A program made the translations under genes and the position numbers. A model generated the notes under the pieces. The model was not told the DNA's origin. It did not search any database and saw only the letters and a list, made by a program, of their open reading frames with translations. A stretch of 32,000 nt of DNA from Microcystis aeruginosa NIES-843 (GTDB lineage Bacteria > Cyanobacteriota > Cyanobacteriia > Cyanobacteriales > Microcystaceae), in assembly GCF_000010625.1 (NCBI RefSeq), contig NC_010296.1, positions 5,370,001 through 5,402,000 on the forward strand, in the 5' to 3' direction. Of the stretch, positions 4,725-23,818 are shown one piece after another (the stretch's first letter is position 1; each line of letters opens with the position of its first letter).

Positions 4725-4837
4725 AGTCGATGATAGGTAGTGCGTTACTTCAATCATAGTCCATCACACAATCACAGTCGATGATAGGTAGTGCGTTACT
4801 TCAATCATAGTCCATCACACAATCACAGTCGATGATA
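4725..4837 (+). repeat. 51-bp tandem repeat, 2 full copies plus 11 bp of a third copy that is interrupted by IS630
   Basis: AGTCGATGATAGGTAGTGCGTTACTTCAATCATAGTCCATCACACAATCAC occurs at 4725-4775 and 4776-4826. The third copy starts at 4827 and resumes after the IS at 5976 (TAGGTGGTGCGTTAC). Confidence 0.85.
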
Positions 4838-5975
4838 TACTTTAGACGTTCATAATCTGAGATTTATTAAACTTCTGAAATCGTAGAGTCAGCAAGGAAT
4901 CCAGTTCTTTTTTATGTTTCAAATGGGCATCATTCAAACATTCATAAATGGCTGAAGAAAAGTCAGAAAAGTTTTCATAGTATTTACCATACAAACATTT
5001 CTTTTTGACAAATTTCCACAGCCTTTCAATTAAATTTAGATTAGGCGAATAAGACGGCAAATAGAGTAGCTCTATTGACAAAGAAAGAGCCAATTCTTCA
5101 ACAATTTTACATTTTTGATAGCGGGCATTATCTAAGACTAGAGTGATGGGAATAGTTATTCCTAAAGCAGCTATTTTTGACCAGAGTTCACAGACTTGAG
5201 TTGCTGTAATATAAGTGTCATTCGTAACCAGAATAACTTCATGAGTTATTGCATTTAATGCTCCTAAAACATTGAAGCGTTTACGCCCGCTCGGTGACTT
5301 AACAAAAAGTCTCTCAAAACACCAAACAAAACCGAGAAATGCTCCCATGACGAAGTGAGCGGCATCAACAAAAAAAACAGCCCTTTTTCCTTCTTTAGCC
5401 TCATTTAGTCTGGGTTCTAGCTTTTTTTCTTTGTAGTCCTCTTGTTCATCTGGGTCAGCTTTAGAAGGAAGAGAACCTACTTTTAAACATTTCATTCCCA
5501 TTGATTTTAAAAATTTTCTCACTTGGGTAAGACTTCGTTTTATTCCCGTTAATTCTTCTATCCTATATACAGCTTCATTTATTGTGGCTGGTGGATTTTT
5601 CTCGAAGTATTTTTTGAGCGTTTCTTTTTGAGACTCTAATTCACTTTTAGGGCGATAGAAGTTGATTTCTTTTAATTTTTCTATTCCGCCTTCTTCATAA
5701 TCTCGAAGATAGGTTAATAAGGTATTTGGCGAGATTCCTGCTAACTGACAAATTTTTTTGTGCGGTATCTTTTGGCTCTTTAACCAGAGAACTTCCATCT
5801 TCAGTTGAACCCGGGGATGGGGATGATGAAATCTTTCATAATACAGTGAGTTCTTTTCTTCTTCCGTGAATTCTAGGTTAATCATGTTTTTAATGAGTGC
5901 TTTGCTTCTAATTATGACTCTTAAACTATATTATTGTCCTTGAGTAAAAAATGCAAGTTGTAGCCGTGCAAAGTA
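4838..5975 (-). mobile_element. IS630-family insertion sequence, copy type 1 (about 1.14 kb)
   Basis: Imperfect terminal inverted repeats (TACTTTAGACG... / ...CGTGCAAAGTA). A TA dinucleotide lies on both sides (4836-4837, 5976-5977). It contains a single transposase ORF. Confidence 0.85.
4842..5885 (-). CDS. IS630-family DDE transposase
   Basis: 347 aa. N-terminal HTH (ICQLAGISPNTLLTYL). DDE region: FFVDAAHF, LVLDNARYQ, LPSYSPNLNLIERLWKFVK. Confidence 0.9.
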   Translation of the reverse strand: MINLEFTEEEKNSLYYERFHHPHPRVQLKMEVLWLKSQKIPHKKICQLAGISPNTLLTYLRDYEEGGIEKLKEINFYRPKSELESQKETLKKYFEKNPPATINEAVYRIEELTGIKRSLTQVRKFLKSMGMKCLKVGSLPSKADPDEQEDYKEKKLEPRLNEAKEGKRAVFFVDAAHFVMGAFLGFVWCFERLFVKSPSGRKRFNVLGALNAITHEVILVTNDTYITATQVCELWSKIAALGITIPITLVLDNARYQKCKIVEELALSLSIELLYLPSYSPNLNLIERLWKFVKKKCLYGKYYENFSDFSSAIYECLNDAHLKHKKELDSLLTLRFQKFNKSQIMNV

Positions 5976-7311: not shown

Positions 7312-10300
7312 TTAAACTAATACAAGTATATTAGATGCGGTAAGAGTGGGTTTGGAACTGAGAGTTGCAATTTGAATGGCTGCTAGTGTACCTGTCCCGT
7401 CCCCATCAAAGAATAGTCCTCCAGTGATTGTATTATAAATAAAGCGATTGCTGGCATTTAATGCAGTTGTTCCTAACACGAATTGAGCGGCTGTAATCGC
7501 CACTCCTGCGGCTAAACCACCGCCAAAACCCGCAGCAGAGACAGTAATTTTATCCCCCTGACTGGAGAGAAAATCGGTAATTGTGTCAATCCCTTGATTG
7601 GGGTTTTTGAAGGTGAAGCGATCGCCACCTGCACCCCCTGTTATGGTATCATTACCAGTACCACCAATCAAGGTATCATTTCCCGCACTTCCTGTAAGGG
7701 TATTTTTACCACTATTACCAGTGATAATGTTATTTAATGTGTTACCTGTCCCATTAATATTTGCGGTTCCCGTTAACGTGAGGTTTTCTAGGTTATTTCC
7801 CAGGGTATAAGTAACTGATGATTGAACAGTATCTGTCCCTTGGTTGGCATTTTCCGTAATGGTATCGGTAGTAGTATCAACTTGATAAGTATCATTCCCT
7901 AAACCACCGATGAGGGTATCAATTCCTGTTGCACCATTAAGAATATTGTTACCACTATTACCGGTGATAATGTTATTTAATGTGTTACCTGTCCCGTTAA
8001 TATTTGCGGTTCCCGTTAACGTGAGGTTTTCTAGGTTATTTCCCAGGGTATAAGTAACTGATGATTGAACAGTATCTGTCCCTTGGTTGGCATTTTCCGT
8101 AATGGTATCGGTAGTAGTATCAACTTGATAAGTATCATTCCCTAAACCACCGATGAGGGTATCAATTCCTGTTGCACCATTAAGAATATTGTTACCACTA
8201 TTACCGGTGATAATGTTATTTAATGTGTTACCTGTCCCGTTAATATTTGCGGTTCCCGTTAACGTGAGGTTTTCTAGGTTATTTCCCAGGGTATAAGTAA
8301 CTGATGATTGAACAGTATCTGTCCCTTGGTTGGCATTTTCCGTAATGGTATCGGTAGTAGTATCAACTTGATAAGTATCATTCCCTAAACCACCGATGAG
8401 GGTATCAATTCCTGTTGCACCATTAAGAATATTGTTACCACTATTACCGGTGATAATGTTATTTAATGTGTTACCTGTCCCGTTAATATTTGCGGTTCCC
8501 GTTAACGTGAGGTTTTCTAGGTTATTTCCCAGGGTATAAGTAACTGATGATTGAACAGTATCTGTCCCTTGGTTGGCATTTTCCGTAATGGTATCGGTAG
8601 TAGTATCAACTTGATAAGTATCATTCCCTAAACCACCGATGAGGGTATCAATTCCTGTACCTCCATTAAGGATATTGTTACCACTATTACCGGTGATAAT
8701 GTTATTAGCAGCGTTACCTGTCCCATTAATATTTGTAGTCCCAGTTAGGGTCAGATTTTCCACATTAGCGGGTAGGGTAGTGGTGACATTAGCGGTTAAG
8801 GTGTCGCTGATGGTGACAATTCCCTTGTTATTGGTAAGAGTTGCATTGATGGGATTACTGAGGTTAATGGCAAAAGTTTCGTTTGCCTCATTGAGGTTAT
8901 CATTAAGGATGGGAATGGTAATAGTAGCAGTGGAAGTATTAGGTGCAATGGTGATAGTTCCGGTTTTGCTAGTGTAATCTACATTAGCGGTAGCGTTAAT
9001 GGGTGCAGTGGTATAGTTGAAGGTAATTGGTTGTGAATTGGGGTTATCAACTGTGACGGTGAGGATGGCATTATTATCTTTACCTTCCACTACGGTGATA
9101 TTATTGATGGAGAGTTTGGAGAAATCGTCATTAGTAATTGTCCCCGTCACTGCGGTGGCGGTCCCCACTGTATAACCAGTACCTGAAGCAAGAGTTAAAG
9201 CGACGGTTTCGTTATTTTCAACTGTAGTGTCAGCAGTGGGGTCAACTGTTACGGTAGCAGTGGATGAATTAGCAGCGAAGGTGACTGTATTGGTAGTCCC
9301 TGTACGAGTGTAGTCGGTATTGAGGGTAGCTGTCCCTCCGAGGGTGTAATTGACTGTTAAGGAATTAGTGGTTACTCCGCTACGAGTGAAGGTATAAACC
9401 AGATTTGTTGTCCCGTCTTCGTTAACACTTGCAGGGGAGACTGCTAAGCTAATAACGACAATTGTCCCTTGCTCTTCAAATGCACCAATATCTACTGTAC
9501 CACCAAAGATGCGATTGAATCCTGTTCCTCGTTGATCAAAGGGAATTTGTTCGGTCGTGTCACCATCACCATCAATATCTTCGCTATCAACAAGAATAAG
9601 GCTATTGTTTCCTGCATTAATCGCCGGACTTCCTGCTAAAAGTGCATGGGTCAGAGTTAAACCCCCATAGTTAGCTAAAGGAGCAAGTCCAGGATTAGAA
9701 TTAACAATATCAGTTCCTGTGCCAATCGTTCCTTTTGCACCAGTTAAATCACCGATAAGGTTGTAGTTATTGCCATTAAATATCGCACCAGATAACCCAG
9801 AAGAAAGTAAATCGAAACCATTAGTTGTATTATCTATATTTCCAGCAACAATTGTGTTTTTAAGAAAAAAGGTTGTACCAAGACTATAAATGCCGCCTCC
9901 ACCGCGTCGTCCAACAAATTGAGTGTCAACGACAGTATTATTGGTAATTGTGCTATTAATCAAATTAAATGTGTCACCAGAAGAATATATGCCACCTCCA
10001 GCATAACTTGCATTATTGCCACTAACGGTTGTATTGATCAAAGCCATTGAAGTACCGTTGTTCGTTATGCCTCCACCATTTCCCGCACTATTACCACTAA
10101 CAGTAGTATTGATCAGAGTCAGCGATCCAGCTACACTTGATATGCCACCTCCATAAACGCCTCCTTGATTATTATTAATTGTCGAGTTGATTGCAATTAG
10201 TGTTCCGCCTGAATTGTCAACGCCTCCGCCTTCCTGAAAACTACTACCACTAGCTATATTATTACTAACCACGCTACCCTGACGGAGATAGACAAAACCA

Positions 10301-11268
10301 CGATTCTGAATACCACCACCATTGCTAGAAGAACCAAGTGCCTTATTTCCACTTACAGTTGTGTTGTATAAGTCAAGAACACCTGTCGCATTAACACTAA
10401 TACCTGCGCCGGAAGAAGATATAATTCCCCCGGTTACTACGACATTCTGTAAGCTTAATGCACCTCCACTGAGAACATGAAAAACCCGATCAGAATTTAA
10501 TAATCCTGACGCATCAATAGTAGCTTTTTGTCCATTAAATGCTCCAATATAAAGCACATTATTACGAGACTTAATATCTAAGTCTCCCTTTTTTCCCTCA
10601 TTTTCATTAACGCCATTACTCGTTAGAGTATAGGTTAAGCCTCCTGTTAAATGAATTTCATATTCAGTATTCGGGTTAGCATTAGCAATTAAGATCGCAT
10701 CCCGCAAAGATAATCCATTATCAGCATTGCCATCATTTTGATCGGCGGTCGTATTAACGGTTAAAATAGTTGGTGCAGATTTTTCTACAGGAACATCATT
10801 TCCTGTGATTGTAATATTGGCAAAGTCATTTTCAGTTGTAATTCTTGCTACTTCTTGCGTTGTTAAATCTACTCCACGAACTAATGCTGCGAAATATTCT
10901 CCCTCATCTCCCGCGCTATCCACCTGATTAATTTGAGCATCCACATAATGCCCAATTTCTTCTAAAATTACATTAATTATCGTTGCTGACGAGGCCGTAT
11001 TCAAAAAAGATGCTGATAGATAAATCTTATTCTTACTGCTGGAATATGCACCATTCGCAGTCCCCAAAACCTCATCACTGAGTACCTCAATTGGGGGAAG
11101 TTGACTAAAATTTCGACTTTGCCACTGTTGTCGTAATTGCGTCGCCTTAACCACATCATAACTTGTCCCAAAAGCGGTTTCTAAATTCACCCAAAAGCCA
11201 TCAGATTGAGCGAAATTGAACAAAACATCGTCAACAGCAGGAAGAATCGGCAACAGGGTAGAAGTCAT
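7312..11268 (-). CDS. giant secreted RTX-type protein: N-terminal conserved leader domain, parallel beta-helix, Calx-beta-like domains, five 81-aa Ca-binding repeat modules, T1SS-type C-terminus
   Basis: 1318 aa. It has a CSLREA-like LSLRDAILIANANP followed by many xNTTVSGN/GGGI beta-helix turns. Calx-beta-like segments: TATVTVDPTADTTVENNETVALTL, TATITIPILNDNLNEANETFAINL. GGxGxD nonapeptides: GGLGNDTY, GGTGNDTITGGAGGDRFTF. There is no N-terminal signal peptide. Confidence 0.85.
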   Translation of the reverse strand: MTSTLLPILPAVDDVLFNFAQSDGFWVNLETAFGTSYDVVKATQLRQQWQSRNFSQLPPIEVLSDEVLGTANGAYSSSKNKIYLSASFLNTASSATIINVILEEIGHYVDAQINQVDSAGDEGEYFAALVRGVDLTTQEVARITTENDFANITITGNDVPVEKSAPTILTVNTTADQNDGNADNGLSLRDAILIANANPNTEYEIHLTGGLTYTLTSNGVNENEGKKGDLDIKSRNNVLYIGAFNGQKATIDASGLLNSDRVFHVLSGGALSLQNVVVTGGIISSSGAGISVNATGVLDLYNTTVSGNKALGSSSNGGGIQNRGFVYLRQGSVVSNNIASGSSFQEGGGVDNSGGTLIAINSTINNNQGGVYGGGISSVAGSLTLINTTVSGNSAGNGGGITNNGTSMALINTTVSGNNASYAGGGIYSSGDTFNLINSTITNNTVVDTQFVGRRGGGGIYSLGTTFFLKNTIVAGNIDNTTNGFDLLSSGLSGAIFNGNNYNLIGDLTGAKGTIGTGTDIVNSNPGLAPLANYGGLTLTHALLAGSPAINAGNNSLILVDSEDIDGDGDTTEQIPFDQRGTGFNRIFGGTVDIGAFEEQGTIVVISLAVSPASVNEDGTTNLVYTFTRSGVTTNSLTVNYTLGGTATLNTDYTRTGTTNTVTFAANSSTATVTVDPTADTTVENNETVALTLASGTGYTVGTATAVTGTITNDDFSKLSINNITVVEGKDNNAILTVTVDNPNSQPITFNYTTAPINATANVDYTSKTGTITIAPNTSTATITIPILNDNLNEANETFAINLSNPINATLTNNKGIVTISDTLTANVTTTLPANVENLTLTGTTNINGTGNAANNIITGNSGNNILNGGTGIDTLIGGLGNDTYQVDTTTDTITENANQGTDTVQSSVTYTLGNNLENLTLTGTANINGTGNTLNNIITGNSGNNILNGATGIDTLIGGLGNDTYQVDTTTDTITENANQGTDTVQSSVTYTLGNNLENLTLTGTANINGTGNTLNNIITGNSGNNILNGATGIDTLIGGLGNDTYQVDTTTDTITENANQGTDTVQSSVTYTLGNNLENLTLTGTANINGTGNTLNNIITGNSGNNILNGATGIDTLIGGLGNDTYQVDTTTDTITENANQGTDTVQSSVTYTLGNNLENLTLTGTANINGTGNTLNNIITGNSGKNTLTGSAGNDTLIGGTGNDTITGGAGGDRFTFKNPNQGIDTITDFLSSQGDKITVSAAGFGGGLAAGVAITAAQFVLGTTALNASNRFIYNTITGGLFFDGDGTGTLAAIQIATLSSKPTLTASNILVLV
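7716..8770 (-). repeat. 243-bp (81-codon) tandem repeat inside the giant gene: about 4 near-perfect copies plus diverged edge copies
   Basis: The GTAACTGATGATTGAACAG... unit starts at 7811, 8054, 8297 and 8540 (period exactly 243). The inner copies are identical by eye. Confidence 0.9.
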
Positions 11269-11298
11269 GACGTTAACTGCAACAGTTTATTGCTAACA

Positions 11299-11328
11299 AT
11301 TTTAGCCTAACAAGTGCAAATTTTTCAA
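11299..11328 (-). promoter_or_regulatory. sigma70-like promoter of the giant gene (TTGAAA - 18 nt - TAAAAT)
   Basis: On the minus strand, -35 is at 11328-11323 and -10 at 11304-11299, about 30 nt upstream of the ATG at 11268. The same architecture is conserved in four other copies. Confidence 0.45.
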
Positions 11329-11360
11329 GGGTGCTGTAACAGAAATTAATATTGATTACA

Positions 11361-11393
11361 AGAAAACGGGTTTCTTTAAGAAACCCGTTTTCT
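11361..11393 (-). terminator. 33-nt perfect hairpin (AGAAAACGGGTTTCTT T AAGAAACCCGTTTTCT), followed by an extra copy of the right arm (11394-11409)
   Basis: The 16-bp arms are exactly complementary. It lies immediately 3' of the Rpn-like A1 stop codon, and the U-rich 3' arm fits an intrinsic terminator. Confidence 0.55.
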
Positions 11394-11407
11394 AAGAAAC
11401 CCGTTTT

Positions 11408-12367
11408 CTAGATATTGATTTTTGCCAAAGACTGCTTAAATTCTGCGAGAGAATTAGCGGTAGCTGCTAATTTTAGTAGCTCTTCTAAGATAGTAGGGTT
11501 AGTCATTTTGCCGATTATCTCTTCAATTTCTGAAGAAATCTGTCCAAACCGCACAGTTAAAACTGTTTTTATGTCATCACGGCTTTTTTCTAGCACCCCA
11601 ATTTCTTTACCGCGTTCGATTCCTCGTAACTCCATATTACTCATTAAAGGCATGGTTTTTTCCTCCTCAAATTGTTTAATTTTACTCTCTAAGCTTGACT
11701 GCAATTCAGGGGATAAAGTCATCATATTGTCGATGATTTCAAACAGTTTAATTATCTGTTCCCTCTCGAACTCCTTTTCATATAATCCCCTGATTAACTT
11801 CCACTTCCACTGTTCCCGTTGTGGCAGCTTCCCAGTAGTCGCTTTTGTTTTCAGGTGTGCCATGACTATCATAGCAAAAGGATTGCTACTTGCTTCTAGT
11901 TCTGTCCATCTTTCCTCATAGTCCAGTAATTTAACCGTTGGGAATTTGAGGCTGACTTCACAACCGGCGATAGTATAATTATAGGAATCTGGTCGCCAAT
12001 TTACTCGTTCATCTCCTAATATAGCGAGACTGATAACCGGTTTCTGATACAAATCAAAGGCCCGATAGTTATAAATATACATCCTCTGAGGAAAATTTTC
12101 TTCGTATTGACTTTGAATTTCAATATGAATCAAAATCCAGACTTCTTCACCCCTGAGTAACCAAACTTTATAGAGTTTGTCAGCGAAACGTTTTTTGGTC
12201 TTTGCTGAAGCGGTAATCCGTTTGAGTTCTTTTTCTAGGGATTCGGGAATTTTTGTCCAATCAATTAATTGGTGAACTTCAGGAAAAAAGAAGTATAAAA
12301 ACGCTTCAAAATACTCGCTTAATGCTTCTTTCCAGGGTTCATCATAATTGGCGGTTGTTGGGTTCAT
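11408..12367 (-). CDS. YhgA/Rpn-like PD-(D/E)XK nuclease ('recombination-promoting nuclease/putative transposase') with DUF4351-type C-terminal tail, family A copy 1
   Basis: 319 aa. N-terminus YDEPWKEALSEYFEAF. Core: ADKLYKV...WILIHIEIQ...FPQRMYIYNY (a D...E.Q nuclease-like motif). Helical tail: TVLTVRFGQISSEIEEIIGKM...LAEFKQSL. It has one RGIERGKEIG hinge unit. Confidence 0.65.
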   Translation of the reverse strand: MNPTTANYDEPWKEALSEYFEAFLYFFFPEVHQLIDWTKIPESLEKELKRITASAKTKKRFADKLYKVWLLRGEEVWILIHIEIQSQYEENFPQRMYIYNYRAFDLYQKPVISLAILGDERVNWRPDSYNYTIAGCEVSLKFPTVKLLDYEERWTELEASSNPFAMIVMAHLKTKATTGKLPQREQWKWKLIRGLYEKEFEREQIIKLFEIIDNMMTLSPELQSSLESKIKQFEEEKTMPLMSNMELRGIERGKEIGVLEKSRDDIKTVLTVRFGQISSEIEEIIGKMTNPTILEELLKLAATANSLAEFKQSLAKINI

Positions 12368-12711
12368 TTGAGTTGTTTGCTTACTCGTAGGCTGTGAAGC
12401 GCGATAGCGTAACGCACCGATTTAATAATAGAGGTGGTGGTGGTAATCTGGGGATTTTGTGGTAAAAAAGCGGATATTTGTTCGATTCCGTCTTGATTGG
12501 GAGAGAGAATAACCGTGGCGACTTCTGGAATTACTCCAGCTTGGAGACTTTGATAATCGCTAACACCAGCATCGAGGAAAACTACGGTAGCGGTTAAACG
12601 CTGATTTCTCACACTATCCACCCGATTAGCTTGACTCAAGCCATCAGATTGAGCAAAATTGAACAAAACATCGTCAACAGCAGGAAAGCTCGGCAACAGG
12701 GTAGAAGTCAT
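12364..12711 (-). pseudogene. 5' fragment of a DUF4347-domain giant-protein gene (leader + truncated domain), reading into the Rpn-like A1 start
   Basis: MTSTLLPSFPAVDDVLFNFAQSDG matches the giant-gene start. It is followed by TATVVFLDAGVSDYQSLQAGVIPEVATVILSPNQDGIEQISAFL...QITT, which looks like a DUF4347 N-terminal half. The rest of such a gene is absent. Its stop overlaps the A1 ATG (ATGA). Confidence 0.7.
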
Positions 12712-12740
12712 GACGTTAACTGCAAAGGATTAATGCGACT

Positions 12741-12770
12741 ATTTTATGCAAACAATCGCCAATTTTTCAA
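12741..12770 (-). promoter_or_regulatory. sigma70-like promoter copy (TTGAAA - 18 nt - TAAAAT) in front of the leader fragment
   Basis: Same hexamers and spacing as at 11299-11328. Confidence 0.4.
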
Positions 12771-12799
12771 GGGGGATATAACAAAAATTAACATTATAC

Positions 12800-12832
12800 A
12801 GAAAACGGGTTTCTTTAAGAAACCCGTTTTCT
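12800..12832 (-). terminator. 33-nt perfect hairpin plus duplicated right arm (unit boundary)
   Basis: Identical to the hairpin at 11361-11393 and directly 3' of the A2 stop. Confidence 0.55.
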
Positions 12833-12846
12833 AAGAAACCCGTTTT

Positions 12847-13878
12847 CTAGATATTGATTTTAGCCAAAGACTGCTTAAATTCTGCGAGAGAATTAGCGGT
12901 AGCTGCTAATTTAACAATCCCTTGTAATGTAGATAGTACCGAAACTTTATTCAGGTATTGTTCCACATCTAAAGGAACTTCACCTAAGCGAGCTTGCAAA
13001 ACTGTTTTGACAAAATCACGAGCATTTTCTAACGCTCCGATTTCCTTGCCTATTTCTTTACCGCGTTCTATCCCTCGTAACTCCCCAATTTCCTTGCCAA
13101 TTTCCTTACCGATTTCCTTACCGCGTTCTATTCCTCGTAACTCCATATTACTCATTAAAGGCATCGTTCTTTCCTCCTCAAATTGTTTGATTTTACTCTC
13201 TAAACTTGACTGCAATTCAGGGGATAAAGTCATCATATTGTCGATGATTTCAAACAGTTTAATTATCTGTTCTCTCTCGAACTCCTTTTCATATAATCCC
13301 CTGATTAACTTCCACTTCCACTGTTCCCGTTGTGGCAGCTTCCCAGTAGTTGCTTTTGTTTTCAGGTGTGCCATGACTATTATAGCAAAGGGATTGCTAC
13401 TTGCTTCTAGTTCTGACCATCTTTCCTCATAGTCCAGTAATTTAACCGTTGGGAATTTGAGGCTGACTTCACAACCAGCGATAGTATAATTATAGGAATC
13501 TGGTCGCCAATTTACTCGTTCATCTCCTAATATAGCGAGACTGATAACTGGTTTCTGATACAAATCAAAGGCCCGATAGTTATAAATATACATCCTCTGA
13601 GGGAAATTTTCTTCGTATTGACTTTGAATTTCAATATGAATCAAAATCCAGACTTCTTCACCCCTGAGTAACCAAACTTTATAGAGTTTGTCAGCGAAAC
13701 GTTTTTTTGTCTTTGCTGAAGCGGTAATCCGTTTAAGTTCTTTTTCTAGGGATTCGGGAATTTTTGTCCAATCAATTAGTTGGTGAACTTCAGGAAAGAA
13801 GAAGCATAAAAACGCTTCAAAATACTCGCTTAATGCTTCTTTCCAGGGTTCATCATAATTGGCGGTTGTTGGGTTCAT
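12847..13878 (-). CDS. YhgA/Rpn-like nuclease with DUF4351-type tail, family A copy 2 (variant C-terminal cassette)
   Basis: 343 aa. It is near-identical to A1 and A3 except for hinge repeat number and a replaced ~39-codon block (FVKTVLQARLGEVPLDVEQYLNKVSVLSTLQGIV). Confidence 0.65.
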   Translation of the reverse strand: MNPTTANYDEPWKEALSEYFEAFLCFFFPEVHQLIDWTKIPESLEKELKRITASAKTKKRFADKLYKVWLLRGEEVWILIHIEIQSQYEENFPQRMYIYNYRAFDLYQKPVISLAILGDERVNWRPDSYNYTIAGCEVSLKFPTVKLLDYEERWSELEASSNPFAIIVMAHLKTKATTGKLPQREQWKWKLIRGLYEKEFEREQIIKLFEIIDNMMTLSPELQSSLESKIKQFEEERTMPLMSNMELRGIERGKEIGKEIGKEIGELRGIERGKEIGKEIGALENARDFVKTVLQARLGEVPLDVEQYLNKVSVLSTLQGIVKLAATANSLAEFKQSLAKINI

Positions 13879-14222
13879 TTGAGTTGTTTGCTTACTCGTA
13901 GGCTGTGAAGCGCGATAGCGTAACGCACCGATTTAATAATAGAGGTGGTGGTGGTAATCTGGGGATTTTGTGGTAAAAAAGCGGATATTTGTTCGATTCC
14001 GTCTTGATTGGGAGAGAGAATAACCGTGGCGACTTCTGGAATTACTCCAGCTTGGAGACTTTGATAATCGCTAACACCAGCATCGAGGAAAACTACGGTA
14101 GCGGTTAAACGCTGATTTCTCACACTATCCACCCGATTAGCTTGACTCAAGCCATCAGATTGAGCAAAATTGAACAAAACATCGTCAACAGCAGGAAAGC
14201 TCGGCAACAGGGTAGAAGTCAT
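13875..14222 (-). pseudogene. 5' fragment of a DUF4347-domain giant-protein gene (second copy)
   Basis: Protein identical to the 12364-12711 fragment, with the same ATGA overlap with the A2 start. Confidence 0.7.
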
Positions 14223-14251
14223 GACGTTAACTGCAAAGGATTAATGCGACT

Positions 14252-14281
14252 ATTTTATGCAAACAATCGCCAATTTTTCAA
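14252..14281 (-). promoter_or_regulatory. sigma70-like promoter copy (TTGAAA - 18 nt - TAAAAT)
   Basis: Same hexamers and spacing as at 11299-11328. Confidence 0.4.
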
Positions 14282-14310
14282 GGGGGATATAACAAAAATT
14301 AACATTATAC

Positions 14311-14343
14311 AGAAAACGGGTTTCTTTAAGAAACCCGTTTTCT
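14311..14343 (-). terminator. 33-nt perfect hairpin plus duplicated right arm (unit boundary)
   Basis: Identical to the hairpin at 11361-11393 and directly 3' of the A3 stop. Confidence 0.55.
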
Positions 14344-14357
14344 AAGAAACCCGTTTT

Positions 14358-15401
14358 CTAGATATTGATTTTAGCCAAAGACTGCTTAAATTCTGCGAGA
14401 GAATTAGCGGTAGCTGCTAATTTTAGTAGCTCTTCTAAGATAGTAGGGTTAGTCATTTTGCCGATTATCTCTTCAATTTCTGAAGAAATCTGTCCAAACC
14501 GCACAGTTAAAACTGTTTTTATGGCATCGCGGCTTTTTTGTAACGCGCCAATTTCTTTACCAATTTCCTTACCTATTTCTTTACCGCGTTCTATCCCTCG
14601 TAACTCCCCAATTTCCTTGCCAATTTCCTTACCGATTTCCTTACCGCGTTCTATTCCTCGTAACTCCATATTACTCATTAAAGGCATCGTTCTTTCCTCC
14701 TCAAATTGTTTGATTTTACTCTCTAAACTTGACTGCAATTCAGGGGATAAAGTCATCATATTGTCGATGATTTCAAACAGTTTAATTATCTGTTCCCTCT
14801 CGAACTCCTTTTCATATAATCCCCTGATTAACTTCCACTTCCACTGTTCCCGTTGTGGCAGCTTCCCAGTAGTCGCTTTTGTTTTCAGGTGTGCCATGAC
14901 TATTATAGCAAAGGGATTGCTACTTGCTTCTAGTTCTGACCAGCTTTCCTCATAGTCCAGTAATTTAACCGTTGGGAATTTGAGGCTGACTTCACAACCG
15001 GCGATAGTATAATTATAGGAATCTGGTCGCCAATTTACTCGTTCATCTCCTAATATAGCGAGACTGATAACCGGTTTCTGATACAAATCAAAGGCCCGAT
15101 AGTTATAAATATACATCCTCTGAGGAAAATTTTCTTCGTATTGACTTTGAATTTCAATATGAATCAAAATCCAGACTTCTTCACCCCTGAGTAACCAAAC
15201 TTTATAGAGTTTGTCAGCGAAACGTTTTTTGGTCTTTGCTGAAGCGGTAATCCGTTTGAGTTCTTTTTCTAGGGATTCGGGAATTTTTGTCCAATCAATT
15301 AATTGGTGAACTTCAGGAAAAAAGAAGTATAAAAACGCTTCAAAATACTCGCTTAATGCTTCTTTCCAGGGTTCATCATAATTGGCGGTTGTTGGGTTCA
15401 T
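14358..15401 (-). CDS. YhgA/Rpn-like nuclease with DUF4351-type tail, family A copy 3
   Basis: 347 aa. It has the longest hinge, (GKEI)3-GELRGIER-(GKEI)3, and an A1-type C-terminal tail. Confidence 0.65.
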   Translation of the reverse strand: MNPTTANYDEPWKEALSEYFEAFLYFFFPEVHQLIDWTKIPESLEKELKRITASAKTKKRFADKLYKVWLLRGEEVWILIHIEIQSQYEENFPQRMYIYNYRAFDLYQKPVISLAILGDERVNWRPDSYNYTIAGCEVSLKFPTVKLLDYEESWSELEASSNPFAIIVMAHLKTKATTGKLPQREQWKWKLIRGLYEKEFEREQIIKLFEIIDNMMTLSPELQSSLESKIKQFEEERTMPLMSNMELRGIERGKEIGKEIGKEIGELRGIERGKEIGKEIGKEIGALQKSRDAIKTVLTVRFGQISSEIEEIIGKMTNPTILEELLKLAATANSLAEFKQSLAKINI

Positions 15402-15455
15402 TTGAGTTGTTTGCTTACTCGTAGGCTGTGAAACGCGATAGCGTAACGCACCGAT

Positions 15456-15746
15456 TTAATAATAGAGGTGAATGGTGGTAATCTGGGGATTTTGTGGTAA
15501 AAAAGCGGATATTTGTTCGATTCCGTCTTGATTGGGAGTGAGAATAACGGTGGCGACTTCTGGAATTACTCCAGCTTGGAGACTTTGATAATCGCTAACA
15601 CCAGCATCGAGGAAAACTACGGTAGCGGTTAAACGCTGATTTCTCACACTATCCACCCGATTAGCTTGACTCAAGCCATCAGATTGAGCAAAATTGAACA
15701 AAACATCGTCAACAGCAGGAAAGCTCGGCAACAGGATAGAAGTCAT
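15456..15746 (-). pseudogene. 5' fragment of a DUF4347-domain giant-protein gene (third copy, ends ...QITTIHLYY-stop)
   Basis: Same sequence as the other two fragments, but it has 1 nt more in the GGT run. It therefore keeps the family-like ...TTIHL frame and stops 55 nt before the A3 ATG. Confidence 0.7.
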
Positions 15747-15775
15747 GACGTTAACTGCAAAGGATTAATGCGACT

Positions 15776-15805
15776 ATTTTATGCAAACAATCGCCAATTT
15801 TTCAA
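15776..15805 (-). promoter_or_regulatory. sigma70-like promoter copy (TTGAAA - 18 nt - TAAAAT)
   Basis: Same hexamers and spacing as at 11299-11328. Confidence 0.4.
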
Positions 15806-15834
15806 GGGGGATATAACAAAAATTAACATTATAC

Positions 15835-15867
15835 AGAAAACGGGTTTCTTTAAGAAACCCGTTTTCT
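15835..15867 (-). terminator. 33-nt perfect hairpin plus duplicated right arm (unit boundary)
   Basis: Identical to the hairpin at 11361-11393 and directly 3' of the A4 remnant stop. Confidence 0.55.
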
Positions 15868-15881
15868 AAGAAACCCGTTTT

Positions 15882-16670
15882 CTAGATATTGATTTTTGCC
15901 AAAGACTGCTTAAATTCTGCGAGAGAATTAGCGGTAGCTGCTAATTTTAGTAGCTCTTCTAAGATAGTAGGGTTAGTCATTTTGCCGATTATCTCTTCAA
16001 TTTCTGAAGAAATCTGTCCAAACCGCACAGTTAAAACTGTTTTTATGGCATCGCGGCTTTTTTGTAACGCGCCAATTTCTTTACCAATTTCCTTACCTAT
16101 TTCTTTACCGCGTTCTATTCCTCGTAACTCCCCAATTTCCTCACCAATTTTCCTTCCTCGTAACTCCATATTACTTACTAAAGGCATGGTTCTTTCCTCC
16201 TCAAATTGTTTGATTTTACTCTCTAAGCTTGACTGCAATTCAGGGGATAAAGTCATCATATTGTCGATGATTTCAAACAGTTTAATTATCTGTTCCCTCT
16301 CGAACTCCTTTTCATATAATCCCCTGATTAACTTCCACTTCCACTGTTCCCGTTGTGGCAGCTTCCCAGTAGTCGCTTTTGTTTTCAGGTGTGCCATGAC
16401 TATTATAGCAAAAGGATTGCTGCTTGCTTCCAATTAGTCACTGATAACTGATAACTGATAACTGATAACTGAATAGAGTTTGTCAGCGAAACGTTTTTTT
16501 GTCTTTGCTGAAGCGGTAATCCGTTTAAGTTCTTTTTCTAGGGATTCGGGAATTTTTGTCCAATCAATTAGTTGGTGAACTTCAGGAAAGAAGAAGCATA
16601 AAAACGCTTCAAAATACTCGCTTAATGCTTCTTTCCAGGGTTCATCATAATTGGCGGTTTGTGATGTCAT
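15882..16670 (-). pseudogene. family A Rpn-like gene copy 4 with an internal ~280-bp deletion replaced by heptamer repeats
   Basis: The N-terminal 66 codons (16473-16670) and the C-terminal ~180 codons (15882-16430) align to A2 and A3. The nuclease core (LIHIEIQ...) is missing. The filler is CAATTAGTCA(CTGATAA)4CTGAA. Confidence 0.8.
16441..16473. repeat. (CTGATAA)4 heptamer microsatellite at the A4 deletion junction
   Basis: Four exact CTGATAA units plus CTGAA. A related array lies at 18979-19005. Confidence 0.9.
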
Positions 16671-16775: not shown

Positions 16776-16808
16776 AGAAAACGGGTTTCTTAAAGAAACC
16801 CGTTTTCT
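16776..16808 (-). terminator. 33-nt hairpin variant (AGAAAACGGGTTTCTT A AAGAAACCCGTTTTCT) between family B copy 1 and A4
   Basis: Same arms as the unit-boundary hairpin. It lies about 55 nt 3' of the B1 stop. Confidence 0.5.
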
Positions 16809-16865
16809 CGATAATGGTGTTGAGACTGAAGCTTATCTGTTAATTCCCCCCTGAAAATGACAATT

Positions 16866-17861
16866 TTACAGGGTAATTAAAGTATTTAACCAATTGATTA
16901 AATCTTCAACCGTAGAAAAATCGAATAAAGCTTCTCCTAATACTTCGACATCATCAATACTTAACTGCATAATTTTAGTTTCCAATGAAGGATTAATCTC
17001 CCCTAACTTGCGTTTAATTTGACGAAGAATCAATGTCTTTTCGCGTTCGATACCTTGTTCGATACCTTGTTCAATACCTTGTTCAATACCTTGTTCAATA
17101 CCCCGTTCGATACCTTGTTCAATACCTAGTTCAATACCTTGACGCATCCAACTGGTAGTAATTTGCATAACTCCCTCCTGTACGGGTTGACTAAATGTGC
17201 TAATCTCTTGTTGAAATTGTATCTCTTCGACCGGATTTAGATTGAGATAAGTATCAATAAATCCAGAAATTAATTCCATTTTCGCAGGATTTAACCTTAA
17301 AGTAATTAACAAGCGCAGACATTCGGCCTTAACTTTTGCTCGCTCTTTCTCGGCAATGTTCATCTTCGCCATCAAAGCTGAAGCAACCGGATTCGGCTGA
17401 TTGAGAAAATCTCGCCAATTTAATCGATTTAACTGCACTACTTGATAGTTAAATTCTAAGACTTTTAAATCAGGAAAATCGACTACATATTGACTAATCG
17501 CTTCTCTTTTTGGCTTTGAATAAGAAAAAATTACAATCGGATAAATCGGTAAGACAAATTTCTCATGAAAGCGAGCAAAATAAGTAAACATTCGCCGGTT
17601 AAACCACTTTCGGGAACTTTCCTGCGCCTCTACATGAATCAGAAAAAAAGATTCTTTTCCTCGAAACTTAACCTGTGCGACTAAATCACTTTCATACCTT
17701 TCTCCTTCCGTGACATCTGTAAATACTTCTTTGTCTAAAAAAGTAATCGATTCCCTATCTAAATAATCTATCAATTGAGGGAAAAACAACTCGATAAATT
17801 CGACAAAAAAGGTGGAGATTAACTCCTTAAATAAGCGATAATGGTCAATATTATTAGTCAT
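16866..17861 (-). CDS. YhgA/Rpn-like PD-(D/E)XK nuclease ('Rpn family recombination-promoting nuclease/putative transposase') with DUF4351 tail, family B copy 1
   Basis: 331 aa. N-terminus DHYRLFKELISTFFVEFIELFFPQ. Core: ESDLVAQV...FFLIHVEAQ...FNRRMFTYFARF. Also LNRLNWRDFLNQPNPVASALMAKM. The hinge is (GIEx)8. The tail LILRQIKRKLGEINPSLETKIMQLSIDDVEVLGEALFDFSTVEDLINWL is DUF4351-like. Confidence 0.75.
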   Translation of the reverse strand: MTNNIDHYRLFKELISTFFVEFIELFFPQLIDYLDRESITFLDKEVFTDVTEGERYESDLVAQVKFRGKESFFLIHVEAQESSRKWFNRRMFTYFARFHEKFVLPIYPIVIFSYSKPKREAISQYVVDFPDLKVLEFNYQVVQLNRLNWRDFLNQPNPVASALMAKMNIAEKERAKVKAECLRLLITLRLNPAKMELISGFIDTYLNLNPVEEIQFQQEISTFSQPVQEGVMQITTSWMRQGIELGIEQGIERGIEQGIEQGIEQGIEQGIEREKTLILRQIKRKLGEINPSLETKIMQLSIDDVEVLGEALFDFSTVEDLINWLNTLITL

Positions 17862-17960
17862 GTAATGTCATCTTAACTAATCTGAGCGATGAATGACTAC
17901 TCTTCTCTGTTGTATTCTGAAAAGTCGGTTTTGGCAACGGATTGTTATGACCTCACCCCC

Positions 17961-18065
17961 TTAACCTACAGCGATTGCCAAATTCGCCCAAAAACCATCA
18001 GATTGAGCAAAATCGAACAAACTATCGTAAACAGCAGGAAAAATCGGCAAAAGAGAAGAAGTCAT
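17961..18065 (-). pseudogene. 34-codon stub of a giant-protein gene (MTSSLLPIFPAVYDSLFDFAQSDGFWANLAIAVG-stop) abutting the family B unit
   Basis: It is homologous at DNA and protein level to the first 34 codons of the 1318-aa gene (…FAQSDGFWVNLETAFG…). Homology ends at about 17969, where the family B unit begins. Confidence 0.7.
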
Positions 18066-18095
18066 GACTATAACTGCAAAAGTTTATTGCTAACA

Positions 18096-18125
18096 GTTTT
18101 AGCCCAACAATCCCCAATTTTTCAA
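18096..18125 (-). promoter_or_regulatory. sigma70-like promoter copy (TTGAAA - 18 nt - TAAAAC) in front of the leader stub
   Basis: Same position and spacing relative to the ATG as in the other four copies. The flanking sequence is closest to the giant-gene copy. Confidence 0.4.
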
Positions 18126-18240
18126 GGGTGCTATCACAAAAATTAACATTTATTACAAGAAAACGGGTTTCTCGTAATGTTCACTACCCGATGAAATTGC
18201 TCTGGTAAAATGTCCATAATAGACAAGAGAGAATTTACTT

Positions 18241-18453
18241 ATGAGTGTAGCCGACGAAATTTACAAAATCGTGAAATCAATGCCTGAAGATCGAGCGAAT
18301 AAAATTTTGGATTTTGCAAAGTTTTTGCAAGCTAAACCAGAGTTAGAAGATAAGCCATTAGATTTCCGCGATGCGGCGGGATTGGGGCAAGAAATGTGGC
18401 AATCAATTGATGTAGATGCTTATATTCAGCAGGAGCGATCATCATGGGAATAG
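18241..18453 (+). CDS. type II antitoxin (VapB-position small protein, DUF2281-like N-terminus)
   Basis: 70 aa. It overlaps the downstream PIN gene by 10 nt. N-terminal pattern: IYKIVKSMPEDRANKILDFAKFLQ. Confidence 0.6.
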   Translation: MSVADEIYKIVKSMPEDRANKILDFAKFLQAKPELEDKPLDFRDAAGLGQEMWQSIDVDAYIQQERSSWE

Positions 18454-18878
18454 TTTTACAACCGGGAAATATTGTATTTTTAGATACGGCTCCTTTTATT
18501 GACTTTTTCGAGCAACATCCCATCTTTTTTCCTTATATGGAAAAGTTATTTTATGATGTCTCCATTTATCAGGTTAAGGTTATCACTTCGATGATCACTT
18601 TTATCGAAATTGTTACCCATCCAGCAAGGATAGGTAATCAGGAGTTGGTAGAACAATACCGGACATATTTCACCCGTTCGAGCCAAATTACTCTGTTACC
18701 AATCGATTTATCTATTGCTAAGGAGGCGATCGCTCTTCCTACCCAATACACTCTCAAAACACCCGATGCGATTCAACTGGGAACAGCGATCGCATATTCA
18801 GCAACCTACATTATCACTAATGATAGGCAATGGAAACAGTTAACTCATCAAAATGTATTGCTAGTAGATGAAATGTAG
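18444..18878 (+). CDS. vapC: PIN-domain ribonuclease toxin (VapC family)
   Basis: 144 aa. The conserved acidic positions are visible (FLDTAPF, FIEIV, TPDAIQLGTA, IITNDRQW). It is translationally coupled to the upstream small ORF. Confidence 0.75.
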   Translation: MGIVLQPGNIVFLDTAPFIDFFEQHPIFFPYMEKLFYDVSIYQVKVITSMITFIEIVTHPARIGNQELVEQYRTYFTRSSQITLLPIDLSIAKEAIALPTQYTLKTPDAIQLGTAIAYSATYIITNDRQWKQLTHQNVLLVDEM

Positions 18879-18920
18879 CGAATCAGTTCTGGAAATGAAT
18901 GATTTTACCTCTCCCCCTAA

Positions 18921-18972
18921 CCCCATCTCCTCGTAGGAGAGGGGGAATTGCGACTCCTGCGAGGAGATGGGG
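18921..18972. repeat. 13-bp inverted repeat CCCCATCTCCTCG / CGAGGAGATGGGG with two internal mini-palindromes
   Basis: The arms at 18921-18933 and 18960-18972 are exact complements. Internal CTCCTCGTAGGAG and CTCCTGCGAGGAG are each self-complementary. It lies 3' of vapC. Confidence 0.6.
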
Positions 18973-19028
18973 AAATACACTGATAACTGTTAACTGTTAA
19001 CTGAAATTCATACCTGAAAATGACAATT

Positions 19029-20036
19029 TTACAGGGTAATTAAAGTATTTAACCAATTGATTAAATCTTCAACCGTAGAAAAATCGAATAAAGCTTCTCC
19101 TAATACTTCGACATCATCAATACTTAACTGCATAATTTTAGTTTCCAATGAAGGATTAATCTCCCCTAACTTGCGTTTAATTTGACGAAGAATCAATGTC
19201 TTTTCCCGTTCAATACCTTGTTCGATACCTTGTTCAATACCTTGTTCAATACCTTGTTCAATACCTTGTTCAATACCCCGTTCGATACCTTGTTCAATAC
19301 CTAGTTCAATACCTTGACGCATCCAACTGGTAGTAATTTGCATAACTCCCTCCTGTACGGGTTGACTAAATGTGCTAATCTCTTGTTGAAATTGTATCTC
19401 TTCGACCGGATTTAGATTGAGATAAGTATCAATAAATCCAGAAATTAATTGCATTCTCGCCGCATCTAACCTTAAAGTAATTAACAAGCGCAGACATTCG
19501 GCCTTAACTTTTGCTCGCTCTTTCTCGGCAATGTTCATCTTCGCCATCAAAGCTGAAGCAACCGGATTCGGCTGATTGAGAAAATCTCGCCAATTTAATC
19601 GATTTAACTGCACTACTTGATAGTTAAATTCTAAGACTTTTAAATCAGGAAAATCGACTACATATTGACTAATTGCTTCTCTTTTTGGCTTTGAATAAGA
19701 AAAAATTACAATCGGATAAATCGGTAAGACAAATTTCTCATGAAAGCGAGCAAAATAAGTAAACATTCGCCGGTTAAACCACTTTCGGGAACTTTCCTGC
19801 GCCTCTACATGAATCAGAAAAAAAGATTCTTTTCCTCGAAACTTAACCTGTGCGACTAAATCACTTTCATACCTTTCTCCTTCCGTGACATCGGTAAATA
19901 CTTCTTTGTCTAAAAAAGTAATCGAGTCCCTATCTAAATAATCTATCAATTGAGGGAAAAACAACTCGATAAATTCGACAAAAAAGGTGGAGATTAACTC
20001 CTTAAATAAGCGATCATGGTCAATATTATTAGTCAT
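19029..20036 (-). CDS. YhgA/Rpn-like nuclease with DUF4351 tail, family B copy 2
   Basis: 335 aa. It is near-identical to B1, differing by an extra GIEQ unit, a small patch (DAARMQ vs NPAKME) and two point changes. Confidence 0.75.
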   Translation of the reverse strand: MTNNIDHDRLFKELISTFFVEFIELFFPQLIDYLDRDSITFLDKEVFTDVTEGERYESDLVAQVKFRGKESFFLIHVEAQESSRKWFNRRMFTYFARFHEKFVLPIYPIVIFSYSKPKREAISQYVVDFPDLKVLEFNYQVVQLNRLNWRDFLNQPNPVASALMAKMNIAEKERAKVKAECLRLLITLRLDAARMQLISGFIDTYLNLNPVEEIQFQQEISTFSQPVQEGVMQITTSWMRQGIELGIEQGIERGIEQGIEQGIEQGIEQGIEQGIEREKTLILRQIKRKLGEINPSLETKIMQLSIDDVEVLGEALFDFSTVEDLINWLNTLITL

Positions 20037-20089
20037 GTAATGTCATCTTAACTAATCTGAGCGATGAATGACTACTCTTCTCTATTATA

Positions 20090-20293
20090 GGGTTTGCTGA
20101 AAAAGTTTCTCGTGGGGGCAGGGTGTGGGGTGTAGGGTGTAGGGTTTTACCCATTTTCAGGTGGTCAATTACCTAATTTTCAGGGAAAAAGTACCTGAAT
20201 TTTACCCCCGATCACTCCGATAGCCAGTACTTTTTGATTTCCCAAAAGTCTAAAAGTCTTACCCAACAAGGTTTTTAGATTTATTCAGCAAGC
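20090..20293. mobile_element. MITE (~204 bp) with a G-rich GGGGTGT/AGGGTGT heptamer tract
   Basis: Left end GGGTTTGCTGAA..., right end ...TTCAGCAAGC. A 9-10 bp direct duplication (C)TCTATTATA lies at 20080-20089 and 20293-20302. The uninterrupted equivalent site is present upstream of B1 (17901-17920). Confidence 0.8.
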
Positions 20294-20392
20294 TCTATTA
20301 TATTCTGAGAAGTCGGTTTTGGCAACGGATTGTTATGACCTTACCCCCTTAACTTACGAGGAGAGGGGGATGCTTCCCGCAAAAAACCCCAC

Positions 20393-20425
20393 AGAAAACG
20401 GGTTTCTTGAAGAAACCCGTTTTCT
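20393..20425 (-). terminator. 33-nt hairpin variant (AGAAAACGGGTTTCTT G AAGAAACCCGTTTTCT)
   Basis: Same arms as the unit-boundary hairpins. It lies upstream of the B2 unit. Confidence 0.45.
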
Positions 20426-20429
20426 CGAT

Positions 20430-20492
20430 CAGAAATTAATTACATTTTCGCTAGATTTAACCTTAAAGTGATTAACAAGCGCAGACATTCCG
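20430..20492 (-). pseudogene. ~63-bp remnant of a third family B Rpn-like gene
   Basis: CAGAAATTAATTACATTTTCGCTAGATTTAACCTTAAAGTGATTAACAAGCGCAGACATTC aligns to the internal B1 sequence 17264-17326 with a few mismatches. Confidence 0.7.
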
Positions 20493-20708
20493 CTAACCGA
20501 TCACAAAAAAAACTGGAGCGAGCGCTTTTCGCCACCCCAGTGCTGTCACGGAATTCAATTCTGTATCTAAATTAACACATTATTGGCAGCAAGCATAATT
20601 AAGGAAATTGGAAATTTTTCCGAAAGGGGTTTCCAAAGGCTGTAACCTTTACTGACAGGGGATTTCGAGCCTGATAAGGCTAAAGTTTTTGGAGTCTATC
20701 CTCGAAAA

Positions 20709-23590: not shown

Positions 23591-23805
23591 GGGTTTGCAG
23601 CAAAAAGTTTGTTGGTGGGGACAGGGTGTGGGGTGTGGGGTGTGGGGTGTAGGGTTTTACCCATTTTCAGGGGGTTAATTACCTAATTTTCAGGGAAAAA
23701 GTCCAGGGATTTTCCCCCCGATCACTCCCATATCTGGTACTTTTTGATTGACAAAAGGTCTAAAAGTGTTACCCAACAAGGTTTTCAGATTTATTCAGCA
23801 AACCC
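23591..23805. mobile_element. MITE (~215 bp), same family as 20090-20293
   Basis: TIRs GGGTTTGCAGCAAA / TTATTCAGCAAACCC. The 10-bp duplication TAACTATTTA (23581-23590 and 23806-23815) includes the stop codon of the upstream gene. It has a longer GGGGTGT tract. Confidence 0.85.
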
Positions 23806-23818
23806 TAACTATTTATCC

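Follow-up and report, generated by a model that had tools for sequence, protein, structure and literature searches.

We analyzed a 32,000-nucleotide (nt) stretch of the genome of Microcystis aeruginosa NIES-843 (NC_010296.1, positions 5,370,001 to 5,402,000), hereafter called the window and used as reference for all coordinates. The window harbors two copies, B1 and B2, of a gene designated rpn family B, which an earlier, sequence-only reading had described as a discrete unit of about 1.1 kb placed in two different contexts. On the minus strand, from 20.5 to 7.3 kb, the order is a B fragment, a hairpin, a spacer, B2, a VapBC-like gene pair, a promoter with a leader stub, B1, a hairpin, an array of family A genes and a giant gene. 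Loci used for comparison are cited by L numbers. The features of the B region, including a miniature inverted-repeat transposable element (MITE) with its terminal inverted repeat (TIR) and target site duplication (TSD), are as follows.

16776-16808: perfect palindromic hairpin of 33 nt, AGAAAACGGGTTTCTTnAAGAAACCCGTTTTCT, downstream of B1; other copies start at 11361, 12800, 14311, 15835 and 20393.
16850-16865, minus strand: 16-nt 3' tail common to B1 and B2, part of a mosaic 3' flank and not a defined element end.
16866-17861, minus strand: rpn family B copy 1, B1 (RpnL, 331 amino acids, aa), with a predicted N-terminal YhgA-like PD-(D/E)XK nuclease domain and a C-terminal DUF4351, from the list of open reading frames (ORFs) and domain matches.
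16866-17168, minus strand: predicted intragenic antitoxin ORF (RpnS, 100 aa) in the RpnL frame, starting at Met232 (MQITTSWMRQ...) behind a Shine-Dalgarno (SD) sequence, AGGAGGGAG, at 17172-17180.
17045-17141, minus strand: hypervariable 12-nt tandem repeat (4-aa GIEQ/GIER/GIEL), 8 copies in B1 and 9 in B2 (19208-19316), from Tandem Repeats Finder (TRF).
17862-17969, minus strand: B 5' region (b5), 108 nt, with a promoter-like TTGCCA-17-TATAAT whose best match is in B2.
17970-18065, minus strand: giant-gene N-terminal stub, codons 1-32, MTSSLLPIFPAVYDSLFDFAQSDGFWANLAIA; its ORF is closed by V-G-stop from b5.
18066-18173, minus strand: copy of the giant-gene promoter and 5' untranslated region (5'UTR), 86% identical to 11269-11375.
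18158-18172: half hairpin, AGAAAACGGGTTTCT, at the start of this captured promoter/5'UTR copy.
19029-20036, minus strand: rpn family B copy 2, B2 (335 aa), from the ORF list, domain matches and alignment to B1.
20090-20293: MITE of 204 bp in the B2 5' region, with TIR GGGTTTGCTGAA (12 nt) and the 9-bp TSD TCTATTATA at 20081-20089 and 20294-20302.
20358-20392: spacer of 35 nt, GTGGGGTTTTTTGCGGGAAGCATCCCCCTCTCCTC, between B2 and the hairpin.
20430-20493, minus strand: third B gene, a 64-nt internal fragment adjoining the hairpin at 20393-20425, an arrangement also seen in L009, L078, L080 and L153.

At the level of sequence, B is a predicted RpnL/RpnS gene-within-gene toxin-antitoxin of the Rpn (YhgA-like) family. 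A profile search identified DUF4351 in B1 (E=1e-20), and the domain is present in 13 of 13 family members. PF04754 (Transposase_31) was not matched by B1 alone and was reached by B2 at E=4e-4 (20.3 bits, cutoff 21), while it was found in 11 of 13 close homologs that are 61-74% identical to B1 (best E=7e-8). PDDEXK_2 was matched by four of the 13, and TIGR01784 gave a weak match below its cutoff (18.7 bits against 52). In their sources (NCBI, JGI) the homologs are named 'Rpn family recombination-promoting nuclease/putative transposase', TIGR01784 family, or 'DUF4351 domain-containing protein'. In the B family, residues D8, D59, E78 and R90 show little or no variation, and Q80 occurs within HVEAQ. 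By motif and spacing, not by structure-based alignment, D8/D59/E78/Q80/R90 correspond to D11/D63/E82/Q84/R94 of RpnA, residues that mutation has shown to be required (PMC5350276). In an AlphaFold2 model (pLDDT 76.8), residues 34-112 form a beta-beta-beta-beta-alpha-beta core. At the sequence level, neither B1 alone nor the family profile retrieved anything useful from the PDB. On the evidence of its sequence, the B protein may adopt a PD-(D/E)XK nuclease fold.

The antitoxin part follows a published scheme. In RpnL/RpnS genes the antitoxin is made from an internal start, variation in a 4-aa repeat lies 8-20 residues after the RpnS methionine and DUF4351 is the RpnS part (Zhong et al. 2023, PMC10400941). 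In the B family Met232 is invariant, the SD sequence lies 5 nt upstream, and SD and ATG are kept in about 50 copies; (GIEQ/R/L)n starts at RpnS residue 11, about 10 residues past the methionine, with n = 1-15 across Microcystis copies. RpnS is presumably translated from Met232, and the gene may well act as a toxin-antitoxin. Stand-alone RpnS-like ORFs with SD and ATG, repeats and DUF4351 were observed directly 3' of full-length B genes (L010 4965-5240, L030 4903-5348) and resemble the separate RpnS copies of E. coli. PADLOC returned a weak 'putative invertase' match, confined to the repeat region. No B homolog was found in phage records, and homologs occur on 78 cyanobacterial plasmid records, a distribution that fits passive spread.

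As the sequence-only reading had reported, B1 (16850-17969) and B2 (19013-20357) align end to end. They are 98.6% identical, with 16 mismatches in 1120 nt once the MITE and one 12-nt repeat are taken out (TRF counts 9.1 repeat copies in B2 and 8.1 in B1). Five of the 16 mismatches fall in the 108-nt 5' region, which is older and more diverged than the gene, and another five cluster in a single patch of the gene. Each of the two is the other's nearest match among the copies found; the closest other loci are in Microcystis genomes, with protein identity to B1/B2 of at most about 96%. The 5' boundary of the pair (17969/20357) is sharp and coincides with the center of a degenerate palindrome at the distal end of b5, CCCCCTCTCCTC joined to GTAGGTTAAGGGGG. 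Beyond it, B2 is flanked by GAGGAGAGGGGGATGCTTCCCGC and then by the hairpin at 20393-20425, and the claim that the flanks are unrelated holds on this side. The absence of TIRs and TSDs was confirmed: in both copies the best inverted match between the unit ends was no better than in shuffled sequence, and no direct repeat abutting the ends was found. The MITE within B2 has both hallmarks and serves as an internal control, in agreement with the earlier view that classical DDE transposition is not involved. B1 retains the uninterrupted MITE target site, TCTGTTGTA; a second MITE copy lies at 23624-23807, and related copies are present in many Microcystis loci.

The 3' boundary (16850/19013) is not clean, which corrects the earlier reading. 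The B1 flank past 16850 and up to the hairpin is common to L051, L064 and L017. The 3' flanks of B1 and B2 belong to one mosaic family of short modules. A deletion of about 40 nt in B1, B2 and L051, relative to most copies, creates their ...NTLITL end. The 5' half of B1 with its upstream flank matches L013/L025; its 3' end with the downstream flank matches L051. L013 and L025 lack B2, and synteny with these strains breaks within about 7 nt of the proposed 3' end of B2. In both (2828-2861 in each) a hairpin stands exactly where the B2 3' flank ends (window about 19006) and adjoins the same TTAACAG-repeat and VapBC-like region as in the window; left of the hairpin the strains are unrelated. We considered B2 as a clean presence/absence polymorphism against L013 and L025 and rejected this, as there is no collinearity in the left flanks past the hairpin and only the 3' side can be mapped. 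The B2 3' flank also contains a compound palindromic short repeat, CCCCTAACCCCATCTCCTCGTAGGAGAGGGGGAATTGCGACTCCTGCGAGGAGATGGGG, at 18900-18965, which is related to the degenerate palindrome at the B 5' end.

Upstream of B1, the minus strand at 17970-18173 is an 86% identical paralogous copy of the promoter and start of the giant gene (11168-11375). In several loci the homology with B1 stops exactly at the edge of this promoter copy and its half hairpin (q297-299). The junction between stub and B was placed exactly, as GGCAATCGCT joined to GTAGGTTAAGGGGG. The earlier description of a truncated giant-gene leader with its promoter was thus correct, but the leader was put at 34 codons; the giant-gene part comprises 32, with codons 33-34 and the stop contributed by b5. 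Past codon 32 the intact paralogs L011 and L027 continue with ...NLAIAFGSSYDVVKATELRQQW, the 'empty site' sequence. These are paralogous leaders only: among the fetched loci, no strain had the VapBC-like module beside an intact giant gene with no B between. The remainder of the interrupted giant gene was never found downstream of B. The identical junction recurs in 11 genome copies from at least seven genomes and in four metagenome contigs; BLCC-F210 carries three stub/B copies, and FBCC-A1114 and LEGE 91341 carry two each. It follows that the breakpoint is a single old one, later propagated, and that the truncated leader travels with the gene. The proposed two contexts therefore amount to one breakpoint, with an inherited, multi-copy junction.

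Three truncated giant gene/rpn junctions are independent of one another: codon 32 joined to B, a DUF4347-type stub joined to A, and a DUF4347-type gene cut at about codon 170 and joined to B (L037/L169). The second bears out the statement that family A too sits behind a truncated giant gene. Giant-gene 5' regions do recur beside rpn genes, as had been noted, but we found no evidence that they are 'landing sites'. The hairpin, the promoter and the first 24 codons or so are common to RTX/Calx-beta and DUF4347 giant genes (window 11269-11375, 12712-12832 and 17970-18173; L037, L046, L061), which suggests that the 5' module is exchanged between giant-gene families. The promoter copies of the stubs do not group separately from the intact promoters. 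Giant-gene leaders cut directly by the hairpin, with no rpn gene at the junction, were seen at about codon 57 (L015 6142-6256) and about codon 45 (L052, approximately 1477-1700).

To compare unit ends, 68 genome-assembly loci and 120 hairpin-selected metagenome contigs were used, and paralog pairs were compared within three Microcystis genomes. Upstream of the ATG, the homology between paralogs reaches 4, 39, 86, 105-109, 176, 247-250, 265, 292 or 311-312 nt; on the other side it ends at points between -12 and 1731 nt beyond the stop. Such variable ends are what the sequence-only reading had named as refuting a discrete unit of about 1.1 kb, and that part of the proposal is given up. That the genes have been relocated or duplicated is supported. 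On the 5' side, homology to B1 starts at the following positions relative to the ATG.

Further upstream than the hairpin edge: orthologs L013 and L025.
About -312 (hairpin edge): L002, L005, L007, L008 and L010.
About -250: L004 and L046.
-108: B2-type flank.
-86: L027.
-39: L001a, L015-17, L038 and L048.
-25, inside a DUF4347-type giant gene: L037 and L169.
-4: L003.
0: the B' subfamily of 74-76% identity.

The boundary at -108 rests on just two families of flanks, the stub and the GCGGGAAGCATCCCCCTCTCCTC spacer, which indicates a single breakpoint. On the 3' side most copies end with ...NWLNTLTA and a stop; they diverge 11-12 nt before the B1 stop position and carry this different stop, and they have about 30 nt in common up to a HIP1 (highly iterated palindrome) site, GCGATCGC. 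Past this site the copies part, and are followed by a family A gene 70 nt off, by the hairpin and giant-gene promoter, or by other short repeats. The B' subfamily has no giant-gene or hairpin neighbors.

The 33-nt hairpin (folding free energy -27.3 kcal/mol, z = -5.4) is found at module boundaries in many loci. It abuts many unrelated sequences, including internal fragments of B and A genes, and also occurs as 1.5x and 2x copies. In a set of metagenome contigs selected solely by the presence of the hairpin, 53 of 105 copies have an rpn A/B gene or a giant-gene N-terminus no farther than 400 nt away. For positions of these contigs at a distance of over 2 kb the background is 5%; the contigs may be redundant, and the figure is indicative only. 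An exclusive association with rpn was ruled out, as about half of the sampled hairpins have no rpn or giant-gene neighbor. A simple terminator was likewise rejected: a terminator scan missed the hairpin on account of its loop of 1-3 nt and lack of a T-run. An Rfam scan of the whole window matched no known RNA family, and the hairpin is not a described RNA. Internal rpn fragments abutting the hairpin directly (B at about nt 535-598, A from about nt 165) were observed in the window (20430-20493) and in L009, L078, L080 and L153, as well as L073, L099, L146, L157 and L161; rpn genes seem to have been broken internally, by deletion or insertion, at points marked by hairpins. Breakpoints coincide with palindromes at the hairpin edges, at the center of the degenerate palindrome and at the HIP1 site. 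Palindromes may be sites of breakage.

B1 and B2 are probably paralogous rpn toxin-antitoxin genes, not autonomous elements, that were multiplied passively by duplication and recombination. Family membership at the level of sequence, variable homology ends, an inherited multi-copy junction, module order and the lack of TIRs and TSDs are direct observations; the order of events in the spread of B would be as follows. Tandem or segmental duplications could have breakpoints anywhere outside the ORF; homologous recombination and gene conversion could act among rpn copies, hairpins and the promoter-leaders of giant surface-protein genes; and occasional illegitimate joins may occur, often at palindromes. 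The ancestral Microcystis order would have been rpn gene(s), hairpin, promoter and giant gene, and a duplication whose right breakpoint fell early in the giant gene would leave a truncated leader joined to an rpn gene. The junction at codon 32 may have arisen once in this way and then been copied within and between genomes. In L007, L008, L013, L010, L005, L046 and the window the recurring order is hairpin, promoter, 32-codon stub joined to the B 5' region, B, in some cases A, hairpin, promoter and intact giant gene. L001 (B, A, hairpin, stub joined to B, A) has the signature of a tandem duplication with the left breakpoint upstream of B. A conserved order of rpn followed by giant gene, with duplications ending early in the giant gene, accounts for truncated leaders beside rpn genes. 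The mixing of stub and intact promoters in one tree, the mosaic matches of B1 and the closeness of B1 to B2 argue that the modules were reshuffled by recombination or gene conversion.

Several observations weigh against this explanation. Only L001 gives a clean tandem-duplication signature for the stub/B junction, and what lies upstream of the stub is, in most loci, not rpn-related. Three independent giant-gene/rpn junctions exceed what a purely random process would obviously give, and certain homology ends are repeated exactly, namely -108 (in many pairs), the hairpin edge (-312) and a position about 14-29 nt past the common stop (HIP1). A site-preferring process may lie behind these recurrent boundaries. 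The toxin and nuclease roles of B are predictions from its sequence, and Foldseek of the AlphaFold2 model against the PDB returned nothing at E<=0.001 (best E = 0.036); the PD-(D/E)XK nucleases BstEII, Card1 and MGME1 appear only among the weak matches.

A rival explanation is cassette movement driven by recombination. Here a tandem duplicate consisting of the B 5' region, B, sometimes A, hairpin, promoter and 32-codon stub loops out as a circle through homologous recombination and re-integrates Campbell-style at other giant-gene hairpin-promoter modules, with no recombinase belonging to the element. It would account for rpn blocks bracketed by direct repeats of the promoter (upstream a stub copy, downstream an intact promoter and giant gene) in L007, L008, L013, L010 and the window, for unrelated sequence upstream of the stub, for same-genome homology that stops at the hairpin edge 311-312 nt upstream, and for stub promoters whose nearest counterparts are in some cases intact promoters at different loci, as variable crossovers would give. 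We nevertheless consider it unlikely: no circle or excision product was seen, gene conversion alone can explain the promoter relationships, flanking promoter copies in one locus are 78-93% identical and hence a poor substrate for recent recombination, and the downstream contexts differ greatly between copies. A separate, functional reading, to which we assign a slim chance, regards rpn genes, the 33-nt hairpin and the promoter-leader as a recombination-prone 5' 'switch region' for giant surface-protein genes, in which breaks made by Rpn or at palindromes drive cassette exchange, truncation, re-pairing of promoters with RTX/Calx-beta or DUF4347 bodies, and spread of rpn blocks. If true, this would be a host-level system varying surface proteins and defense genes, beyond the debris of duplication.

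That the B unit of about 1.1 kb is itself a discrete, non-canonical element, moved by its own PD-(D/E)XK nuclease in a way that leaves neither TIRs nor TSDs and with a homing-like preference for giant-gene 5' regions, appears very improbable. The sharp 5' boundary at 17969/20357 with its recurrence in many loci, the three junctions and the absence of B2 from L013 and L025, with the synteny break so close to its 3' end, speak for such an element, and autonomous or site-preferring movement has been raised as a possibility for rpnC (Kingston et al. 2017, PMC5350276). The widely varying paralog ends largely refute it, and the -108 boundary reduces to two flank families and one breakpoint. The stub travels with the gene in 11 copies, simple insertion is contradicted by the rest of the giant gene never lying downstream of B, and the B' subfamily lacks the giant-gene and hairpin neighbors altogether. 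We know of no autonomous PD-(D/E)XK transposase, which also weighs against this explanation. Furthermore, rpn genes have been judged non-autonomous (PMC10400941). An assembly artefact or chance similarity, with B1 and B2 as collapsed or chimeric repeats, is hardly credible: Microcystis genomes are repeat-rich and hard to assemble (PMC2442094), but 16 substitutions, one repeat unit and the MITE set the two copies apart, and the same architectures are found in complete genomes and independent assemblies.

The remaining parts of the window provide the context of the B genes. Family A is a homolog of family B (25% identity, E=4e-19) with the same RpnL/RpnS-type design. The relevant features are listed here.

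11361-16670, minus strand: tandem array of family A, four units with a period of about 1.5 kb.
11361-15867, minus strand: three full A units, each with hairpin, promoter, DUF4347-type leader stub and A gene.
About 15882-16670: fourth, rearranged A copy, without an internal segment of about 270 nt.
11361-11393: hairpin, followed by the promoter, upstream of the intact giant gene.
7312-11268, minus strand: intact RTX/Calx-beta giant gene, 1318 aa.
18241-18878, plus strand: VapBC-like pair (DUF2281 antitoxin and PIN toxin) between B1 and B2.
4842-5885: IS630-like transposase gene (DDE_3 and helix-turn-helix), adjoining a perfect 51-bp tandem duplication at 4725-4826.

The A units consist of a 1.5x hairpin, the giant-gene promoter, a leader stub ORF of 96-115 aa and the A gene. 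The encoded proteins (319, 343 and 347 aa) differ in length by whole 4-aa repeats. The array follows the same logic of duplication as B, with a different breakpoint. The RTX/Calx-beta gene itself contains five tandem 243-bp (81-aa) repeats at 7646-8767 that are 79-93% identical, and with the VapBC-like pair and six rpn copies the region looks like a toxin-antitoxin and defense cluster.

For rpn genes in general, no identifiable TIRs or TSDs, region ends that vary between genomes and arrays formed by tandem direct duplication have been described (Zhong et al. 2023, PMC10400941). Rpn proteins were there considered very unlikely to be transposases, while Kingston et al. (2017, PMC5350276) had left open an autonomous or locally stimulated acquisition. 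The Microcystis results reproduce the conclusions of Zhong et al., and the insight that TIRs and TSDs are lacking and the process is not of the DDE type is already published (PMC10400941). In the literature searched, we found no giant-gene promoter-leader neighborhood (RTX-type and DUF4347-type), no such three junctions and no dedicated hairpin. The placement of rpn upstream of giant-gene promoter-leaders, the three independent junctions and the boundary hairpin, all local to Microcystis, may therefore be new. The giant-gene association is real; local architecture with duplication and recombination explains it best, with a small chance that it is a functional recombination region. For annotation, Microcystis genes called 'putative transposase' or 'DUF4351' are better read as Rpn toxin-antitoxin genes, likely antiphage, than as mobile elements, and they add to the inflated transposase counts reported for bloom-forming Microcystis. 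With regard to genome plasticity, hairpin, promoter-leaders and rpn genes act as portable homology that gives rise to arrays, stubs and mosaics. Should the giant-gene association be functional, a defense nuclease family would be linked to surface-protein variation, which the present data do not require.

Among known systems, the 33-nt hairpin resembles the repetitive extragenic palindromic (REP) sequences and bacterial interspersed mosaic elements in being dispersed, abutting unrelated flanks, occurring as 1.5x and 2x copies and lying at rearrangement boundaries. Its association is much tighter than that of classical REPs, with about half of the sampled copies beside rpn/giant-gene modules, and no REP-associated tyrosine transposase (RAYT) turned up, although none was looked for. 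With insertion sequences and MITEs, represented in the window by the IS630-like gene and the MITE, B has in common its multi-copy nature, a size of about 1 kb and the 'putative transposase' annotation. In contrast to these, B has no TIRs, TSDs, constant ends or DDE, HUH or serine/tyrosine recombinase domain. The third comparison is with the Rpn RpnL/RpnS antiphage genes (PMC5350276, PMC10400941). B is cyanobacterial and known here from its sequence, B1 matches PF04754 and TIGR01784 only weakly and below their cutoffs, and the neighborhood of hairpin, giant-gene promoter-leader and stub is not described in these two studies. B resembles these genes in the following: the N-terminal PD-(D/E)XK-type residues, the C-terminal DUF4351 behind an internal SD and ATG, the 12-nt repeat of varying copy number about 10 residues past the internal methionine, many copies per genome, tandem arrays, variable ends without TIRs or TSDs, stand-alone RpnS copies (L010, L030) and plasmid homologs.

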